64,000 nucleotides of DNA from an uncultured Gemmatimonadaceae bacterium (GCA_963751275.1 CAVVTZ010000009.1:448001-512000); one strand, 5' to 3'. Shown: positions 33,196-46,869, counted from the stretch's first letter. Notes: generated by a model from the letters alone, not told the origin. A program made the numbers and translations.

Positions 33196-34044
33196 TTATC
33201 TGTCCGGGTCGACCATATCCTCGAACCGCAGCCACTTCTTGTAATAGTACAGATCGATGTACGTCGTCGGCCCCGTCCGGTTCTTGAGGATCGCGAGCTC
33301 CGTCGCTCCTTCGCTCCCGTACGCCGGGAAGTACAGCTCGTCGCGATAGAGTCCGAGCACCACGTCGGCCAATTGCTTCACCGCGCCCAGCGCGCCGAAA
33401 TCGTCGAGCACCGGCCGCATGTTCTCCCGCCCGGGCTTGAGCGCCGGCAAGTGCGACGTCACCAACAGCGCAACGCCGGAATTCACCGCGATGTCCTTGA
33501 GCCGCCGCACCGCGTGTGCGTGCTCCTCATCCTGCGCCAGCGCGCCGGTGGACACATGCTGCAGCGGATCGAGCACCACCAGCTCGACATGCTCGCTGCG
33601 CGCTACGCCCTTCGCGATCGCGTCGGGGCCGCCGCTCGGCATGCGCGCCACCTTCGGCAGCCGGTCGTGCATTCTGAGCGTGGCGGCGCCCACGCTCGCG
33701 CGCGTCTCATCGTCCATCTCGGCGCCGCGCAGCTGGTCGATGCTCGCGCGCCCCTCGATCGCGAGCGCCCGTTCCAGCACGCGCTCCGGCTCCATCTCCG
33801 CGCTGTAGAACTCCACCGCGCGCCCCGCCTCCGCCGCGCGCAGCGCGAACGCCAGCGCCAGCGCACTCTTGCCCACGCCCACGTCGCCGCCGAGCACCAC
33901 CAGGTCGCCGCGCCGCAGCCCGCCGCCCAGCAGCTTGTCGAGCGTCGGGAAACCGGAGGGCACCGTGCCTTCGGCGGGCGCGCCGTCGGCGACGGCGTCC
34001 GCCCGCTGCACCAGCTGTTTCAGTCGGGAGGGTCGGGGAGGCAT
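33196..34044 (-). CDS. DnaB-like helicase C-terminal domain protein (no N-terminal domain)
   Basis: SGFPTLDKLLGG, Walker A GGDVGVGKS, SAEM, LDPLQ and KNRTG. Confidence 0.85.
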   Translation of the reverse strand: MPPRPSRLKQLVQRADAVADGAPAEGTVPSGFPTLDKLLGGGLRRGDLVVLGGDVGVGKSALALAFALRAAEAGRAVEFYSAEMEPERVLERALAIEGRASIDQLRGAEMDDETRASVGAATLRMHDRLPKVARMPSGGPDAIAKGVARSEHVELVVLDPLQHVSTGALAQDEEHAHAVRRLKDIAVNSGVALLVTSHLPALKPGRENMRPVLDDFGALGAVKQLADVVLGLYRDELYFPAYGSEGATELAILKNRTGPTTYIDLYYYKKWLRFEDMVDPDR

Positions 34045-34050
34045 TTACGG

Positions 34051-34078
34051 ATTATAGATGGGGCGCCGGGTCGGGCAA
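34051..34078 (-). promoter_or_regulatory. sigma70-type promoter (TTGCCC-16-TATAAT) 6 nt upstream of the DnaB-like ATG
   Basis: Consensus -10 box; position implies a leaderless mRNA. Confidence 0.55.
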
Positions 34079-34130
34079 GGGAGCCCGAGTCGTTGCTGAG
34101 CAAGGACGCGCACGGCTACATTCCGATACG

Positions 34131-35693
34131 ATGGCCCAACCCCTCAAGTCGGTGCTGTGGGTGGACGACGAGGCCGATCTCCTCGAGTCGCACCGCATCT
34201 ATCTGCGCGAGAAGGGCTTCGAGGTGGACGCCGCCACGAACGCCGATGACGCCGTCGAGATGCTTCGGCGGCGTCCTTATGGCATTGTCCTCCTCGACGA
34301 GCAGATGCCCGGCAAGCGCGGCCTCGAGGCCTATCGCGAGATCCGCGAGCTGGATCCGCTCCTGCCCATCGTGATGGTCACCAAGAGCGAGGAGGACGCG
34401 GTGCTCCGCGAGGCGATCGGCGTGGACGTGCGTGATTACCTCGTCAAGCCGATCAATCCGCGCCAGGTGCTCACGGTCATCACGCGTGTGTTGGAAGGCC
34501 CGCGCATCCGCGCGCAGGCGCTCTCGCGCGCGTTCGTCGAACGGTTCCGCGAGATCGAGCTCGAGCCCAAACTCACGCTCGACTGGCGCGGCTGGATCTC
34601 GCGCTATTCTGAACTCGCCGAGTGGGACATCGCGCTCGCGGACGCCAAAGAGCAGAGTCTGTACGACTCCCTGCAGGGACTCTATCCCGCGCTCCGCAAG
34701 GAATTCGCGAACTGGATGCGCGGCGAATATCCGCGCTGGCTCAAGAACCTGGAGAGCGACCGCCCGCCGCTCTCGGTGGATGTCGTGTCCGAGTTCCTGC
34801 TGCCCATTCTGGAGCGCTCGCGCGCTGCGGTCTTCGTCGTGATCGACTGCCTGCGTCTCGACCAGTGGATGACGCTCGCGCCGCTCCTCGCGCCGTGGTT
34901 CGATGTGGAGACCACGCACCATTTCTCGGTGCTCCCCACCGCCACGCCGTACTCGCGCAACGCGCTCTTCTCCGGGCTCTTTCCTGGCGAGATCGCCGCG
35001 CGCTTCCCCGACTGGTGGGGCGAGCGCGAGGACGAATCGCTCAACGCGCACGAGAAGCAGCTCCTCGAAGCGCACCTCGCCGAACTCAAGATCGACGTGC
35101 CGGTGCGCTACGATAAGATCTCGAGTGCGAATGACACCGCCGAGCTCGAGCGACGCGTGTCGGGCGCGATCGCGCACGAGGGCGTGAGCGCCTTCGTCTT
35201 CAATTTCGTGGACCTGCTCACGCACGGCCGCTCGGAGTCCGCGATCCTGCAGGAGGTCGCCAAGGACGAGATCGCCCTGCGCGCGCTTACGAAGCAGTGG
35301 TTCGAGCGGTCGGTGCTCTTCGCGCTCCTCAAGGAGGCCGCGCGCCGTCGCATCCCGGTGCTCGTCACGAGCGACCACGGCTCCATCCATTGTCACACGC
35401 CGGCCACGGTGTTCGCCAAGCGTGACGCCACCGCGAACCTCCGCTACAAGTTCGGCGAGGACCTGCGCGCCGAGCGCTCCGAGCACGCACTGCTCTTCGG
35501 GAACTCCGATGACCTGCGCCTCCCGCGGCGCGGACTCGGCGACAACACGCTGCTCGCCGTGGGCGACACCTTCTTCGTGTATCCCACCAAGCTGCGCGAG
35601 TATCAGTCGCGCTACCGCGGATCGTTCCTGCATGGCGGCGTGACGCCGGAGGAATGCATCCTGCCGGTGGCCCTGCTCACGCCCAAGAGCTGA
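34131..35693 (+). CDS. PorX-like response regulator (REC plus PglZ/alkaline-phosphatase-like domain)
   Basis: WVDDE, LLDEQMPG, VIDCLRLDQW, LPTATPYSRNA, TSDHG and HGG. Confidence 0.9.
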   Translation: MAQPLKSVLWVDDEADLLESHRIYLREKGFEVDAATNADDAVEMLRRRPYGIVLLDEQMPGKRGLEAYREIRELDPLLPIVMVTKSEEDAVLREAIGVDVRDYLVKPINPRQVLTVITRVLEGPRIRAQALSRAFVERFREIELEPKLTLDWRGWISRYSELAEWDIALADAKEQSLYDSLQGLYPALRKEFANWMRGEYPRWLKNLESDRPPLSVDVVSEFLLPILERSRAAVFVVIDCLRLDQWMTLAPLLAPWFDVETTHHFSVLPTATPYSRNALFSGLFPGEIAARFPDWWGEREDESLNAHEKQLLEAHLAELKIDVPVRYDKISSANDTAELERRVSGAIAHEGVSAFVFNFVDLLTHGRSESAILQEVAKDEIALRALTKQWFERSVLFALLKEAARRRIPVLVTSDHGSIHCHTPATVFAKRDATANLRYKFGEDLRAERSEHALLFGNSDDLRLPRRGLGDNTLLAVGDTFFVYPTKLREYQSRYRGSFLHGGVTPEECILPVALLTPKS

Positions 35694-37522
35694 TGCGCGC
35701 GACACGATTCTATCCGCGCCTCATCAAGTTCCTGCGCCCGCACGGCTGGCGCATGGCGGGGAACATCATCTTTAATCTGATCGGCGCGGCGCTCGACGGT
35801 TATTCGTTCGCCCTGCTCATCCCCTTCCTGAACGCCTTGTTCAACCAGCCACCGCTCGTGGTCGGCCGCGGCTGGGTGAACAACTTCCTGCACTACACCA
35901 TCGGCGCATTGCTCGACCCCGACCACCCGATGACGTCGCTCCGCAACGTCATCGTCGTTCTGCTCGCCGTCGTCGCGGTCAAGAACATCTTCATCTGGCT
36001 CGCCAACGTCCTCGGGGCCGAGCTGCAGGAGTACGTCACGCGGGACATGCGCGACGCGGTGTACCACCATCTGGTCTCGCTCCCGATCCGGTATTTCACC
36101 AGCACCAAGGTCGGACAGATCCTCTCACGCGTGCTCAGCGATACGGAGCAGACCAAGGCGCTCGTCACCGAGGTCGTGACCAGGGCGGTGAATTCCGCCT
36201 CGCTCGTCATCGTGTACATCGCATACCTCCTCGGCATCTCGTGGCGGCTCACGCTCATCTCGCTCGTCATCGCGCCGCTCCTCACGCTGGTGCTCCAGCC
36301 GCTGCTGCGCCGGCTGCGCCACGGCTATCGCGTGCTGCGCAACGATCACGGCGAGATGATGAGCGTGTTGCAGGAGAGCGTCAGCGGCATCCGTCTCGTC
36401 AAGTCGTACGGCGCGGAGACCTACGAGGACGCGCGCTTCACCGGTGCCAGCTTCAAGTACTCGAGCGGCCTCGTGCGCATGGCGCGCATCTCGAACATCG
36501 CGCAGCCGCTCACGGAAGTGCTCGGGATGGTCATCGTCGCGGTGCTGCTCTGGATCGGGGCGCGCGAGGTGCTCATCGACAACTCACTCCAGGCGTCGCA
36601 GTTCATGGTGTTCATCGCCTTCGTGATGCGGCTGCTGCAGCCGATGAAGCAGCTCTCGCAGATCCCGGCCGTCGCGCAGAATTCCTTCGCGAGTGCCGAG
36701 CGCATCTTCCAGGTGCTGGATCATCCCACCGAGAAGGAACTCGACAAGGGCACTCGCGCGGTGGATGGCTTCCGCCAGTCCATCGTGTTCGACAACGTCT
36801 CGTTCGCGTACGACGACGAGCCGGTGCTCGGCAACATCCAGTTCGCCGCGAGGAAGGGCGACGTGATCGCGCTGGTCGGCGCGAGCGGGGCGGGGAAGAG
36901 CACGCTCGTCGATCTCATCCCGCGCTTCTACGATCCGACCAGCGGCCGGATCCTGCTCGATGGCGTGGACGTGCGCGAGATCACGCTCCCCTCGCTCCGG
37001 AACCTCACCGGGATCGTGAGCCAGGAGACGGTGATCTTCAACGAGAGCGTGCGCGCGAACATCGCGTACGGCCGCAGCGACCAGTACAGCGACGCGCAGG
37101 TCGAGGCGGCGGCGCGCGCGGCGAACGCGCACGCCTTCATCACCGAGATGCCCGACGGCTACGCGACCGCGCTCGGCGAACGCGGCGCGCGGCTGTCGGG
37201 CGGCCAGCGCCAGCGCATTGCGATCGCGCGCGCACTGCTCCTCGACCCGCCCATCCTCATCCTCGATGAGGCCACCAGTGCGCTCGACACCGAGAGCGAG
37301 CGGCTCGTGCAGGAAGCGATCGACCGCCTGCTCGAGGGCCGCACGGTGTTCGTGATCGCGCACCGCCTCTCCACGATCCAGCACGCCACCGAGATCCTCG
37401 TGCTCGACCGCGGCCGGGTCGTCGAGCGCGGCACGCACGACGAGCTGCTCGCGCTGCACGGCGCCTACCACCGGCTGCATGTGCTGCAGTTCGGCGACCG
37501 GGAGCGGGCCGTCCCTGTCTGA
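35693..37522 (+). CDS. MsbA-like ABC exporter (TMD plus NBD)
   Basis: [15 protein letters not shown] and DEATSALD; adjacent to an lpxL-like gene. Confidence 0.92.
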
Positions 37523-38450
37523 CGATCGGCGTCCCACCCCCGCGCACCGCCTGGAGTACGGCGCGCTGCGCGCGATGCTCGCGGTGTTCGGAGCGTTCCC
37601 CTGGCGGCTCTCCACCGCGGCCGCCGGCTTCATCGGACGACTCGGCTACTCGCCCTTCCGCATCCGCCGCCGCGTGGTGGAGCGCCAGGTCGCGGCCGCC
37701 TTTCCCGGGCTCTCCGAGCGCGATGTGTCGAAGATCGCGCGCGCGTCGTACGACAACCTCGGTCGCGTTGCCGTCGAGGCCGCGCACCTCTCGCGACTCG
37801 GACCCGAACAGATCCTCGCGCTCTTCAGCGAGGTAACGGGCTGGGACGCCGTGGAGCGCGCCCGCGCGCGGGGCAAGGGGATCGTCTTCCTCACCGGGCA
37901 TCTGGGCAATTGGGAGCTGGCCGGCGCGATCGTCGCCGCGCGCGGCATCGCCTTCGACGCGATCGCACGCCGCATGGGCAATCCGCTCTTCGACGCCTAC
38001 CTCACGCGCACGCGACTGCGGCTTGGCATGAACATCGTGCCCGATTCAGAAGCGGTGCGCCGCGTGCCGCGCACCCTGCGCGCCGGCGGCGCGGTCGCGT
38101 TCCTCGCGGACCAGTCGGGACTCAATCTCGCTTCCACGTTCGTGCCCTTCTTCGGCCGCCCCGCGAAGACGCCGCGCGGGCCCGCGGTGTTCGCGCTGCG
38201 CTTCGACGCGCCCGTGATCTTCGGCGTCGCCACGCATTTCCCGGACGGACTATTCCGAATGGCCTTCGAGGAGATCCCGGTGGCGCGCACCGGCGACCTC
38301 GAGCGCGACACCGACGCGCTGCTCGCGCGCTACTCCGAAGCGCTCGAGCGCCACGTGCGCCTCGCGCCCGGCCAATACTTCTGGCAGCACAAGCGGTGGA
38401 AACGGCAGCCCGACACCACGCCGCCGGAGCTGCTCGACCCCACGCTGTGA
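37515..38450 (+). CDS. lipid A late acyltransferase (LpxL/HtrB family); start uncertain
   Basis: HLGNWE, LADQ, VPFFG and PGQYFWQHKRWK. Confidence 0.9.
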   Translation: MSDDRRPTPAHRLEYGALRAMLAVFGAFPWRLSTAAAGFIGRLGYSPFRIRRRVVERQVAAAFPGLSERDVSKIARASYDNLGRVAVEAAHLSRLGPEQILALFSEVTGWDAVERARARGKGIVFLTGHLGNWELAGAIVAARGIAFDAIARRMGNPLFDAYLTRTRLRLGMNIVPDSEAVRRVPRTLRAGGAVAFLADQSGLNLASTFVPFFGRPAKTPRGPAVFALRFDAPVIFGVATHFPDGLFRMAFEEIPVARTGDLERDTDALLARYSEALERHVRLAPGQYFWQHKRWKRQPDTTPPELLDPTL

Positions 38451-38711
38451 CCGCGCCGCGCGAGCCGCGGTCGCGCCATCGCGAGCGGTTCATCTCGGCA
38501 TCGGAGCTTGGCGAGTACGCCTATTGCCGCCGCGCCTGGTGGCTCCGCGCGGTGCGCGGCGCGCATTCGGAAGAGCAGGGCACGCGATTCGACGAGGGAC
38601 GCGCCGCGCACGAGCGCCATGGCTACGGTCTGGTCGCCGCGCGCTCGTTCGCCATCGTGGCGCGTGCTGCTCGCCGCCGCGGCCGCGCTCTGGTTCTGGT
38701 TCGCGCGATGA
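38447..38711 (+). CDS. Cas4-like N-terminal half with C-terminal TM (one indel near 38660)
   Basis: ISASELGEYAYCRRAWW and EGRAAH; the shifted frame gives VLLAAAAALWFWFAR* with an ATGA overlap. Confidence 0.65.
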
Positions 38712-39215
38712 TCATCGCTGCGATCGCGCTCGCCGCCGCGAGCCTGCTCGCGATCGCGAGCATCGTGCTCTACCGGCGCGCCGGCATCCGCGGCCGCATC
38801 ATCGCGAGCGACGGCCCCGTGTCGCGTCCGTCGCGCGTGCTGCGCTCGGCGCGCCACGGCATCTCCGGCAAACCCGACTACCTCGTGATCGAGAGTGGCC
38901 GCGTCGCGCCGGTCGAGGTGAAGCCCACGCGCGAGAGCGATCGGCCGTGGCTGCGCGACGTGGTCCAGCTCGCGGCGTACTGCCTGCTCGTCGAGGAGAC
39001 GCACGAGGACTTCGCAGGCTATGGCTATCTCCGCTACGCCAACCGTACCTTTCGCATCGACTTCACTGATTCCATGAGGGACGAAGTGCTCCGCACCGCG
39101 AACGAGATGCGCACCGACCTCGGCGCCGAGGACGTCGATGCGAACCACCGGCGACCCGCGTCGCTGCGCGCGGTGCGCACTCCGCACGCCCTGCGGCCGT
39201 CCGGTGACTGCATGA
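38708..39215 (+). CDS. Cas4-like PD-(D/E)xK nuclease C-terminal half with N-terminal TM (one indel near 39148)
   Basis: GKPD, EVK and QLAAY motifs; removing one base gives RRCARCALRTPC (CxxC-x5-C). Confidence 0.8.
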
Positions 39216-40361
39216 GCTACGACGTGACCGCGTTGCGCGCGCGCGAATATCCGTGGGCCGAGCGCGGCGACGCCATCTGATCCGAACAACGCATCCACCG
39301 GCGCGCTGCCGGCGCGCACCGTGCGCGCGACCGCCGATTTCCACGCGCTGCGCGCCGAGCCGTGGCGGCTCAGCGATGATGCGCAGTTCGCCATCCTCCG
39401 CCGCACCCGCGAGCTCGCCGCGACGCTCATCGGCGCTACTCCCGATGAGATCGCGTGCATGTCGAACACGACGTACGGCGTGAACATCGCCGCGCGCTGC
39501 CTGCCATTGAAGGCTGGCGACGTCGTGCTCACCTTCGACCGCGAATTCCCCGCGAACATTTATCCCTGGATGGCGCTCGCGAAGAAGGGCATCACGCTGA
39601 CGCGCATCCCCACGCGCGACAAGCTCCCCGACGAGGACGCCCTCATCGCCGCGCTCGACGGCAAGAACGTGAGCGTCGTCGCGATCGGCTGGGTGAACTT
39701 CGCCACCGGCTTCAAGGCCGATCTCGCGCGCATCGGCCGCGCCTGCCGCGAGCGCGGCATCTACTTCGTGGTCGACGCGATGCAGGGACTCGGCGCCGCC
39801 ACGCTCGACGCGCGCGCCTGCCACATCGATATCCTCGCATGCGGCGGCCAGAAGTGGCTGCTATCCCCGTGGGGATCGGGCTTCACCTATGTCCGTCGCG
39901 AGCTCGTGCAGCAGCTCGAGCCCGAGGCCGTCGGCTGGATGGCGATGCGCGCCTCCGAGGACTTCACGCGCCTCGTGGATTACGAATTCGCCTTCCACGA
40001 CGACGCGCGCCGCTTCGAGGTGATCACCCTCCCCTTCCAGGATTTCGCCGGCTTCAACGCGAGCCTCGAGATGATGATCGAGCTCGGCCTCAAGGACATC
40101 GAGGCGCACGACGCCGCGTTGGTTGGTCAGGCCGTCGCGTGGGCGCAGAGCCGGAAGGACATGAAGCTCGTGACGCCAGCGGATCCCGCGCGCCGGGCCG
40201 GCATCGTCTCGATCGCGCCGCCCGACCCCGCGGCGACGTCAGCGCGCCTCACGAAGGCGAAGATCATCCACTCGCTGCGCGAGGGCGCCATCCGGCTGTC
40301 GCCGCATTGCTACAACACGAGCGCGGAGATTTCGCGCGCGCTGGAAGTCCTGGGCGGCTAG
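39212..40361 (+). CDS. class V PLP aminotransferase/cysteine desulfurase-like; frameshift near 39280
   Basis: NNASTG, EFPAN, VDAMQG, GQKWL and RLSPHCYN. Confidence 0.9.
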
Positions 40362-40567
40362 GAACCGCCGACGGCGAGTGTGACACCGCGGACGGCGTCT
40401 GTGACACCGCTGACGGCGCCTGTGACGTGTGCGACGTGTGGCAACGACCGCGGCGCGTGTAGTTGCTACACGTCTCACAGGTCACAAGCGCCCCCAGCGG
40501 CGTCACACTCGCCGTCCGCGGTGTCACACTCGCGGTCGGCGGTGTCATACTCGCCGCCGGCGGTTCC
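40361..40567. repeat. ~207-bp inverted repeat built of 21-mer tandem units (3 left, 4 right)
   Basis: Unit ACCGCnGACGGCGnnTGTGAC; ends ggaaccgccg / cggcggttcc. Confidence 0.9.
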
Positions 40568-44702: not shown

Positions 44703-46869
44703 TTGACCCGTAACCCCCTCCGTCTGTCGTTCTGGCGCTCCCGCCCCACCCTCACGAAACGGGTGGTCTTGCTCGCGCTGTTCGGCCTCAGCTTCGGCGC
44801 CGGCGCTGCCGTCGCGTCCTGGACGCTCGTTTGCCGCGGCGGCGCCTGCCCCGACCCCCGCCAGCTCGACCAGTTCGCGCCGCGCCAGACCTCCAAACTC
44901 TATGCCGCCGACGGCCGCTTCATCTCCGAGATCGGACTCGAGCGCCGCACGCTCGTCCCGCTCAAGGAGATCCCTACCGTCGTGCGCGACGCGTTCATCA
45001 TCACCGAGGACAAACGCTTCTACGAGCACCACGGCATCGACTGGGTGCGCGTCTTCGGCGCCGCGGCGCACAACGTCGTCTCGCGAGACTTCGGCCAGGG
45101 TTTCTCCACGCTCACCATGCAGCTCGCGCGCAACGCCTTCCCCGAGAAGATCTCCCGCGAGAAGACGCTCACCCGCAAACTGCGCGAGACGAAGATCGCC
45201 CTCGAGATCGAATCGCTCTATCCGAAGGACAAGATCCTCGAGCTCTATCTCAATCAGATCTACCTCGGCAACGGCGCCTACGGCGTCGAGACCGCCGCGC
45301 AGCGCTACTTCGGCAAGTCCGTCCGCGACCTGAATCTCGCGGAGGCCGCCACGCTCGCCGCACTCCCGAAGGCGCCCGAGCGCCTCAATCCGCGCCGCTA
45401 TCCCGATCGCGCCATCCAGCGCCGCAACACGATCATCGGGCTCATGCGCAATGAGGGCGTCGTCAGCGAGACGGACGCGCGCCTCGCGCAATCCTATCCG
45501 CTCGATCTCGCCAAGAAGAGCGAGTCCGGCGAGCTCGCACCGTACTTCGTGGAGTGGGTCCGCCAGCAGCTCGAGGATCAGTTCGGCGAGAAGCTCTACT
45601 CCGACGGTCTCAAGATCTTCACCACGCTCGACATCGATGTGCAGCAGGCCGCCGAGCGGAACCTCGAACGCCAGCTCCGCGCCATCGAGGCGGGGAAATG
45701 GGGCGCGTATAAGCACACCACCTACGAGCAGTACCTCAGCCGCAGCCTCACCGACAGCGAAGGCGGCGAGTCGTCGCCGTATCTCCAGGGCGCCATGGTC
45801 GCGATGGACCCGCGCAACGGCGCCGTGCGCGCGATGATCGGCGGCCGCGACTTCGATGATTCCAAGTTCAATCGCGCCACGCAGGCGCTGCGCCAGCCGG
45901 GCTCCACCTTCAAGCCCATCGTCTACGCCGACGCCATCCACTCCGGCCTCTCCGCCTCGCACCTGCTCGACGACTCGCCGCTCACCCTCCCGCAGTTCGG
46001 CGGCACCGATTGGACCCCGCAGAACTACGACCTGAAGTTCATGGGCATCATGCCCCTGCGGGAGGCGCTGTACCTGTCCCGCAACCTCGCGACGATCCGC
46101 CTCGGGATCGAGCTCGGCCCGCAGAGCGTGATCGACATGGCGCGCAAGCTCGGCATCACCACGCCCATCCCGCCCTACCCGTCCATCTGACATCGGATCG
46201 GCCGATGTGTACCCGATCGAGATGATCGCGGCCTACTCCGCCTTCGCCACGCTGGGCGTGCGCACCGCGCCGCACGGCATCGTGCGGGTCGAGAACGCGA
46301 AAGGGCAGGTGCTCTGGGAAGGCACGCCTCTGCGCTACGACGTGCTCTCGCGCGAAGAAGCGTGGCTGATGGTGAACATGATGAAGGACGTGCTCTCCAA
46401 GGGATCCGCCGCCTCGGTGGGCGCATTGGGATTCAAGATCCCTGCCGCCGGCAAGACCGGCACCACCAACGATTACACCGACGTCTGGTTCATTGGCTAC
46501 ACCCCCGATCTCCTCGCCGGCGTCTGGATGGGTTTCGACCGTCCGCAGAAGATCCAGGCCAATGCCCAGGGCGGCCGCCTCGCCGCGCCGGCCTGGACCA
46601 GCTTCATGACCGAGGTCTACCAGCGCCGCCTCAAGCCGCCCGACTGGCCGCGCCCCGAAGCGATCATCACGCGCCAGATCGACGACTCCACCGGGCTCCT
46701 GCGCAATCCATTCTGCCCCGCCTCCGTGGTCACGAGCGAGTATTACATTGAAGGCACCGAGCCGACGAAGGAGTGCGACGTGCACACGCCCACCGGCACC
46801 GTCTCGCCGTTCGACACGCTCGTGGTCCCGCAGCTCAAGGTCCCCGGCTCCCCTCCGCCGCGGCGCTGA
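44703..46869 (+). CDS. penicillin-binding protein 1A family; frameshift near 46188
   Basis: EDKRFYEHHG, STLTMQLAR, RKLRE, QPGSTFK, SRN and KTGTT. Confidence 0.93.

Follow-up and report, generated by a model that had tools for sequence, protein, structure and literature searches.

We examined a 64,000-nucleotide stretch of DNA from an uncultured Gemmatimonadaceae bacterium (GCA_963751275.1 CAVVTZ010000009.1:448001-512000; the window), in which two short overlapping genes, here called A and B, appear to encode the N-terminal and C-terminal halves of a nuclease of the Cas4 family, each with a predicted membrane helix (Table 1). Gene A starts at a GTG that overlaps the stop codon of an upstream lipid A-type acyltransferase gene, and it carries ISASELGEYAYCRRAWW, which contains Cys27, followed by GxxxH. 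The hydrophobic tail of A, VLLAAAAALWFWFAR and a stop, is in another frame than the first part of the gene, and its TGA (38709-38711) lies within an ATGA that also holds the start of B, at which the two genes may be translationally coupled. In B, the motif codons fall at 38876 (D of GKPD), 38915 and 38921 (EVK), and 38966 and 38978 (QLAAY), and those of the three cysteines in CARCALRTPC at 39165, 39174 and 39192. This last motif is in a different frame from the rest of B, which ends in a TGA (39213-39215) that shares bases with the following ATG at 39212. An initial annotation, made from the sequence alone, had read the locus as a split, doubly anchored, CRISPR-independent Cas4-like nuclease, and all the motifs on which it relied (ISASELGEYAYCRRAWW, GxxxH, GKPD, EVK, QLAAY and CARCALRTPC) are found where it had placed them. 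As assembled, A and B form one read-through open reading frame (ORF) of 277 residues without the Cys triad. The profile search that had been proposed for the locus places this ORF above the Pfam cut-offs for both PF12705 and PF01930 (32.8 versus 22.7 for PF01930), and in the same kind of search the separate halves of the window, as assembled, score below both cut-offs.

Table 1. Features of the A-B locus and its neighbours, in window coordinates.
Feature	Position	Strand	Description
MsbA-like ABC exporter	35654-37522		5' of the acyltransferase
Lipid A-type acyltransferase	37479..38450	+	Upstream neighbour; PF03279 (Pfam)
Gene A	38447..38711	+	~87 aa; N-terminal half of Cas4 fold and predicted C-terminal transmembrane helix; GTG start at 38447
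Cys27 of A	38525..38527	+	Within ISASELGEYAYCRRAWW; aligned to Fe-S ligand Cys64 of Pcal_0546
His55 of A (GxxxH)	38609..38611	+	Aligned to His94 of Pcal_0546 (weak alignment, E 0.15)
Extra base in A	38662..38663	+	Extra relative to relatives; shifts A tail out of frame, so that A runs into B
ATGA overlap	38708..38711	+	Stop of A and start of B
Gene B	38708..39215	+	~168 aa; predicted signal-anchor helix at the N-terminus, PD-(D/E)xK core, QxxxY, CxxC-x5-C
Hydrophobic helix of B, then RR	38711..38770	+	Predicted N-out, C-in
Catalytic motifs of B	38876..38980	+	D57 (GKPD), E70, K72, Q87, Y91
Extra base in B	39147..39149	+	Extra relative to relatives; throws Cys triad out of frame
CxxC-x5-C (CARCALRTPC) of B	39165..39194	+	Three C-terminal Fe-S ligands
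Class V aminotransferase	39212..40361	+	Downstream neighbour; PF00266 (Pfam)
Extra base in aminotransferase	near 39278 (39278/39279)	+	Extra relative to relatives; breaks the aminotransferase

The frame breaks in A, in B and in the downstream aminotransferase each come down to a single additional base, and all three bases are likely assembly errors. The three same-genus genomes compared all have one base fewer at 38662, at 39147 and at 39278, and their A and B, which lack these bases, are separate, intact genes. Contigs of related strains from three of four public sequencing runs also lack the bases at 38662/3, 39149 and 39279; these contigs belong to relatives that are mostly less than 95% alike, and not to the source strain. 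The two indels suspected in the initial annotation, one of them placed near 39148, thus find support in the relatives, while the search for reads of the source strain, with which they were to be polished, found no run (the best has 9% of words in common) and listed no RNA data set carrying the locus.

That lack of reads leaves room for the alternative that the assembly is correct, and that the locus in the source strain has either decayed into a pseudogene or encodes a fusion that lacks the Cys triad. The clustering of the three extra bases within 620 bp, with none in the flanking 5 kb in a comparison with L035, would also fit such a local event. However, the third base hits an unrelated aminotransferase, and a further base, added at 46190 relative to the single-contig genome G005, breaks a penicillin-binding-protein-like gene (window 44703-46869; the label comes from reading ORFs) and is likely an error of the same kind. 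Isolated one-base indels are common in the comparison with G005, numbering 73 in 137.7 kb, of which 48 are extra bases in this assembly; the count takes coding and intergenic sites together, whichever genome errs. In addition, the ratio of nonsynonymous to synonymous substitution rates (dN/dS) between the window and its three closest genomes, taken over the parts before each break, is 0.10-0.22, which is similar to the ratio between intact relatives. We consider it very unlikely that the assembly is correct at these sites, and a pseudogene or fusion in this one strain would leave the claim about the family untouched.

Across relatives, the two-gene split is the normal state of this family. A and B are separate ORFs in four of five same-genus genomes searched, the fifth (82% complete) giving no B match. 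Of 96 loci from a scan of species genomes, 80 were kept: 13 are ordinary single-chain soluble Cas4 and 67 belong to the split family, in Gemmatimonadota, Chloroflexota and two further bacteria. At these 67 loci, A is a separate ORF in 56 cases and fused in none; four loci lie at a contig edge and seven have no A in the fetched DNA. Ten genomes among these 11 loci were searched for A, which was recovered elsewhere in nine of them, about 5 kb upstream in two. A similar picture comes from metagenomes, where among the best 80 of 525 loci B is adjacent to A at 58, spaced from it at 5, not seen at 17 (5 of which have less than 300 nt downstream) and fused at none. The lengths of the homologues agree. 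Among the 777 cluster representatives matched by the A profile, none of the best 150 extends more than 81 residues beyond the Cys. The B search admitted lengths up to 333 aa and gave 381 homologues; the 120 of them listed measure 166-200 aa, and the ones that bear an organism name are all Gemmatimonadota. The A homologues span 58-111 aa (n=114), in a search whose design was unable to show fusions, and a search with the A alignment found no longer fused forms among 7,993 candidates, which is weak evidence. Homologues mostly occur, as the initial annotation had proposed to test, as adjacent two-gene pairs away from CRISPR loci; they are separate genes with a helix each, and not the single soluble proteins without transmembrane segments that the initial annotation had named as its counter-case.

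The ATGA or GTGA overlaps that are frequent at the A-B junction, together with one natural A-B fusion (L191), could suggest that the two genes are joined into one chain through programmed frameshifting or read-through. Against this, the spacing and frame of the junction vary among loci, and at nine loci (L054, L055, L060, L063, L065, L074, L078, L079 and L097) a whole gene stands between the halves. The representative of these intervening genes encodes a PF03734 YkuD L,D-transpeptidase domain and is tightly coupled to A and B; six of the genes cluster with it by BLASTP and three are alike by eye. At other loci the halves are ~5 kb apart or, in G458 and G555, on different contigs, each with other genes alongside. 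Whole intervening genes and unlinked contigs exclude frameshifting or read-through as a general route to a joined chain, and the natural fusion is nested, with 100% support, inside split relatives. We give this explanation almost no weight.

The two halves travel together, which bears out the co-occurrence predicted for them. Among 251 Chloroflexota genomes, B was found in 75 (at E <= 1e-30, a threshold of our choosing) and A in 59, all of which are within the 75; the 251 genomes, and the 176 non-carriers among them, include the unpublished G375 and G564, neither of which is a carrier. We inspected 49 of the 59 A-positive genomes as split, and the A frames of the other 10, at 82-111 aa, are too short for a fusion. 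The remaining 16 B carriers comprise 14 with a divergent, longer, acidic but separate A, one with the fusion (G367, L191) and one at a contig edge, such that 73 of the 75 carriers have a separate A. B without A occurs in just two genomes, G588 and G339, both of them fragmented. Outside Chloroflexota the distribution is thinner: in Gemmatimonadota its occurrence is patchy, with the pair in 4 of 300 other genomes when only 11 candidates were scored in each, and overlapping A-B genes are present in 4 of 101 genomes of the archaeal Candidatus Methanogaster phylum. Neighbours of A and of B in the ESM Atlas are likewise commonest in Chloroflexota. A few genomes hold more than one copy, namely G017 (L007 and L014, two divergent pairs, with the A of L014 cut by the contig end), G405 (two pairs, L156 and L157) and G580 (L151, a single pair and an additional, broken A).

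Purifying selection acts on both genes, with dN/dS between 0.09 and 0.52 over all pairs. The split family, represented by 40 rows, separates from 11 single-chain proteins in a quick tree with a thin outgroup, lying entirely on one side of a branch that has 97% support in the Shimodaira-Hasegawa approximate likelihood-ratio test (SH-aLRT). Two quick trees, neither with a clade test, disagree on whether the Gemmatimonadota form one group or two. Because the fusion L191 is nested among split relatives, it is probably a re-fusion.

The best sequence and fold matches of the pair are the CRISPR-associated Cas4 proteins (TIGR00372/PF01930; 7MI4, 8D3L, 4IC1 for SSO0001 and 4R5Q for Pcal_0546), with which it shares the PD-(D/E)xK and QxxxY motifs and the "iron staple" of one plus three cysteines. 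The coverage of TIGR00372 is complementary, A matching positions 3-44 and B positions 60-178 of 180. Unlike these proteins, the pair consists of two chains with a membrane helix each at the junction, its locus is without cas1, cas2 or an array, and its clean halves score 57 and 22 bits, short of the 65 required by TIGR00372. The predicted structure of B has a Cas4/Dna2/MGME1-type core, with a mean predicted local distance difference test score (pLDDT) of 84 and about 50 in the Cys tail, and matches 7MI4 and 8D3L in Foldseek at E 2.8e-6. The B core of the fused homologue superposes on residues 65-175 of 7MI4 (Z 12.8, root-mean-square deviation 2.3 Å, 107 residues aligned).

The residues expected of one Cas4 active site are divided between the two genes in a consistent manner. 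Among full-length B loci (n=178), the Cys triad is found in 178, PD in 172, ExK in 172 and QxxxY in 170. All 114 A homologues have the single N-terminal Cys, and every B examined has the triad (120 of 120 homologues and 178 of 178 full-length loci), so the division of the four iron-sulfur (Fe-S) ligands over two polypeptides that was read from the window holds in its relatives. Cys27 and His55 of A are invariant in both A-homologue alignments (A1 and A4), and each is kept in 147 of the best 150 (of 777) distant A-profile matches. When the A profile is aligned to Pcal_0546, a weak match (E 0.15), the invariant Cys falls on Cys64 and the invariant His on His94. In the available text of Lemak et al. 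(PMC4176176), Cys64 is named as a ligand of the cluster and His94 is proposed as a residue that "might provide" the fourth metal ligand. A therefore probably contributes a catalytic His, in which case the metal site would be divided as well as the Fe-S cluster.

Whereas Cas4 proteins are single soluble polypeptides, each of these two genes encodes a hydrophobic helix. A helix precedes GKPD in 120 of 120 B homologues (Kyte-Doolittle 2.7 for the N-terminal helix of the B in the window), with a mean of 0.08 Lys or Arg residues before it and 3.7 after it, and a C-terminal helix is present in 113 of 114 A homologues, with means of 3.1 before and 1.1 after. The two membrane anchors claimed for the window are thus predicted across the family. 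Positive charge flanks membrane helices on their cytoplasmic side (the positive-inside rule), so that the observed bias predicts cytoplasmic soluble parts for both A and B, with the free ends meeting outside. We rejected a cleavable signal peptide on B, as the positive charge comes after the helix rather than before it. A median of 12 residues separates the His from the helix of A, and 13 lie between the helix of B and the first invariant Asp, which would put the active site near the membrane.

The natural fusion offers a view of the same arrangement in one chain. L191:995-2014 (G367) encodes 339 residues in the order A, helix, short loop, helix, B, with degenerate PD and ExK motifs, and its AlphaFold model has helices at 116-149 and 155-195 separated by a 5-residue loop, that is, a membrane hairpin. 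A Chloroflexota sub-clade (L152-L155, L178-L195) has a longer, acidic A of 115-132 aa from the motif. Several members of this sub-clade that are without the His or catalytic residues still keep the four cysteines and both anchors, and the sub-clade may possibly be a non-cutting DNA binder. In archaea, a family of soluble Cas4-like proteins (L281, L283-L285, L288-L291, L293, L294, L296, L297 and L299-L306; about 270 aa) has a long acidic insert at the place where the split family has its membrane helices, and in it IIKTG replaces ExK; this place appears to be a hot spot for insertions. Among 30 loci inspected in one archaeal phylum, we met no single-chain Cas4 with membrane helices inserted in the fold.

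We propose that a single Cas4-type nuclease is encoded in two conserved halves, A and B, that are translated separately and likely pair at the cytoplasmic face of the inner membrane, and we put the probability of this reading at roughly 0.72. As predicted from hydropathy and charge, A would have its N-terminus inside and be held by a C-terminal anchor, and B would be N-out/C-in. The two helices would form a hairpin as in the fused homologue, with the cut in the chain placed in the outside loop. The Fe-S staple and the divalent-metal site would each be completed only in the A-B pair, such that assembly at the cytoplasmic face would rebuild one active enzyme, with its active site about 12-13 residues from the membrane helices.

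Several observations weigh against this proposal. The assignment of the His depends on the weak alignment given above, and the papers disagree on the residue in Pcal_0546, which is His146 in the available text of Rentz et al. (PMC12501428). The topology comes from hydropathy and charge only, and the B helix of the archaeal L278 scores below 1.7. The AlphaFold model of L191 does not dock A on B; its structural alignments cover only about residues 192-336, its predicted template modelling score (pTM) is 0.48 and its Cys regions have a pLDDT of 58-65. Scores for the remaining four models range from 64 to 68. The L191 model is a weak test, built from 22 unpaired rows and no ligand for a member with degenerate catalytic motifs. 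The sub-clade to which we refer above has lost His or PD/ExK residues. Finally, according to the available text of the two papers cited (PMC4176176, PMC12501428), Cys-to-Ala mutants of Pcal_0546, SSO1391 and the Methanosarcina mazei solo-Cas4 stay active, from which it follows that the cluster may be dispensable or structural, and that B might keep some activity alone.

The last point leads to an alternative in which B is the nuclease by itself and A an accessory or regulatory membrane peptide left over from the old N-terminus. B does hold the D, E, K, Q and Y residues and is predicted to fold alone. On the other hand, A retains precisely the Cys and the His of the part of the fold that B is missing, the Cys tail is the poorly modelled part of lone B, and genomes with B and no A are the two fragmented ones mentioned above. 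The H80A mutant of SSO1391, in a residue that may be equivalent to the His of A, is inactive (PMC4176176, available text). On this balance we regard a self-sufficient B as unlikely, and favor the two-chain enzyme.

A further point that counts against our proposal concerns its separation from CRISPR. In Chloroflexota, cas1 was found in 60 of 75 carriers of the pair and in 56 of 176 non-carriers, a comparison that includes related, non-independent genomes and is confounded by their size and completeness. This could suggest that the pair aids immunity in trans, either supplying or trimming incoming-DNA fragments for Cas1-Cas2 or for an Argonaute, or cutting invading DNA itself, and there is a precedent in the cyanobacterial Cas4-family protein ACE1, which works with Argonaute (PMC12094033, available text). 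However, searches for cas1 gave no match in 15 of the 75 carriers and found none in the source genome G000 (83% complete) or in four of the five Gemmatimonadaceae carriers, the fifth giving a weak partial match. Where cas1 is listed on the same contig as the pair (7 genomes), it lies 31 kb to 1.7 Mb away. The recurring neighbours of the 67 family loci include neither cas nor defence genes, and scanning the source genome for repeats revealed no array of spacer type, so the pair is neither beside nor fused to cas1 or cas2 nor near an array, as a CRISPR-associated Cas4 would be. Nor does it resemble the Argonaute-associated ACE1/ACE2, as Piwi had no match in five of five carrier genomes (63-99% complete) and was not among the recurring neighbours. 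We therefore think a role in immunity rather unlikely. The CRISPR independence claimed at first stands for the locus and for this genus, including the lack of cas neighbours, and does not extend to the Chloroflexota, where most carriers have cas1 elsewhere in the genome.

The genomic context of the pair is of the housekeeping kind. It is mostly single-copy and chromosomal, and lies in housekeeping operons, outside cas loci and mobile elements, as is characteristic of solo Cas4; no relative was found in viral contigs, and plasmids gave only distant single-chain Cas4. It behaves as a housekeeping-type gene pair, unlike a defence island. The order msbA - acyltransferase - A - B - aminotransferase is limited to the Gemmatimonadaceae group. 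In other lineages the pair follows an extracytoplasmic function (ECF) sigma factor and precedes holA (6 loci), has RseP upstream in one group (22 loci), or lies near NAD kinase, comEA (6 loci) or recN (3 loci); at 4 loci an AlkZ-like gene is adjacent. Directly upstream of A, a below-cut-off match to NCBIfam PRK14562, which we take to be a translin-like gene, occurs at 20 of L054-L097 and 12 of L113-L166, in a Chloroflexota group other than the one with RseP. In G458 (L196:907-2277), B is unlinked from A and directly follows an AAA ATPase gene, presumably RarA/MgsA. The archaeal neighbours differ from the bacterial ones. We rejected a shared partner gene, because neighbours differ by lineage; that no neighbour is common across lineages also weighs against our reading, as none points firmly to a role.

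We next considered what the membrane enzyme would act on. Its fold neighbours include Dna2, MGME1, Exo5 and AdnAB, and with holA, recN and AlkZ-like genes adjacent in some lineages, and with no copies found on plasmids or in viral contigs, it could act on the cell's own chromosome and process, close to the membrane, flaps, ends or stalled forks in the manner of MGME1, Exo5 or Dna2. These repair-like neighbours are lineage-specific, however, the patchiness in Gemmatimonadota would be odd for a core repair gene, and no helicase partner was seen. Such a role seems to us possible but doubtful. As the most likely role of the two-chain enzyme we tentatively suggest the trimming or degradation of DNA ends that arrive or are held at the membrane during uptake, conjugation or injection, and we would rank this ahead of chromosome repair, and repair ahead of immunity in trans. 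ComEC is uninformative as to DNA uptake, being present in five of five carriers and also in 10 of 14 control genomes.

Membrane-anchored nucleases that act on incoming DNA are known in Bacillus NucA-Nin and pneumococcal EndA. These differ from the A-B pair in having another fold and in being active outside the cytoplasm, and Nin is an inhibitor rather than half of a fold. The nuclease domains of Dna2, human MGME1, Exo5, AdnAB/AddAB and ACE1 do belong to the same fold family (Foldseek, VIA-align), but they are single soluble chains or helicase fusions, with none split or anchored among the entries listed. The closest description is that of solo Cas4. Hudaiberdiev et al. (2017) report, in the main text of PMC5704561, a monophyletic group of solo-Cas4 in many Chloroflexi, with one each in Chloroflexus, Roseiflexus and Anaerolinea. 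These are probably gene B, a correspondence that we draw from the description. Like the pair, solo-Cas4 are Cas4-family genes outside cas loci at about one per genome (PMC5704561, PMC12501428, available text). They differ as described, in that "split" and "fission" are absent from the main text of PMC5704561, where the sole "membrane" concerns another gene, and the M. mazei protein is a single gene product in the available text of PMC12501428, where "membrane" does not occur. No split or anchored Cas4 is described in the available text of PMC4176176, PMC12094033, PMC12501428, PMC13621843, PMC4158269 or PMC11420986, and our wider search, with subscription journals and bioRxiv supplements outside its coverage, found no description of either form in the literature.

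From the sequence comparisons, the pair appears to be a real, conserved, two-gene and doubly anchored form of solo Cas4, with putative binding, cluster, activity and role. Both PMC5704561 and PMC12501428 (available text) treat the function of solo Cas4 genes as an open question. If our reading holds, a large share of the solo Cas4 of Chloroflexota, and some of those in Gemmatimonadota and archaea, would be half-enzymes. The 170-aa gene labelled "CRISPR-associated Cas4" in databases would be without its first Fe-S ligand and likely without a metal ligand, since these sit on A, its small unnamed neighbour; the labelled gene expressed alone would then put an incomplete protein under test, and a frequent false CRISPR-gene call in these genomes would be corrected. 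An Fe-S cluster bridging two anchored nuclease chains would represent a novel means of confining DNA cleavage and of switching it, and the pair is small (~87 and 168 aa) and simple to test. More speculatively, the pair could represent a widespread class of two-chain membrane nucleases, with shared staple and metal site, in Chloroflexota, Gemmatimonadota and some archaea, for which meeting in the membrane would be the on-switch and DNA would be cut under the point at which it crosses the inner membrane; this class would then be the true form of the Chloroflexi "solo Cas4", an idea we hold tentatively.

Some features are separate from the pair. On contigs C1, C2, C7, C9 and C10 of the genome, a unit of about 58 nt is repeated in tandem arrays, which we rejected as CRISPR because their "spacers" are near-identical. 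At 33196-35693 of the window, a protein that consists of a DnaB-like C-terminal domain alone (PF03796) is encoded head-to-head with a response-regulator/PglZ-domain protein, and a short low-complexity repeat follows the aminotransferase at about 40360-40560.

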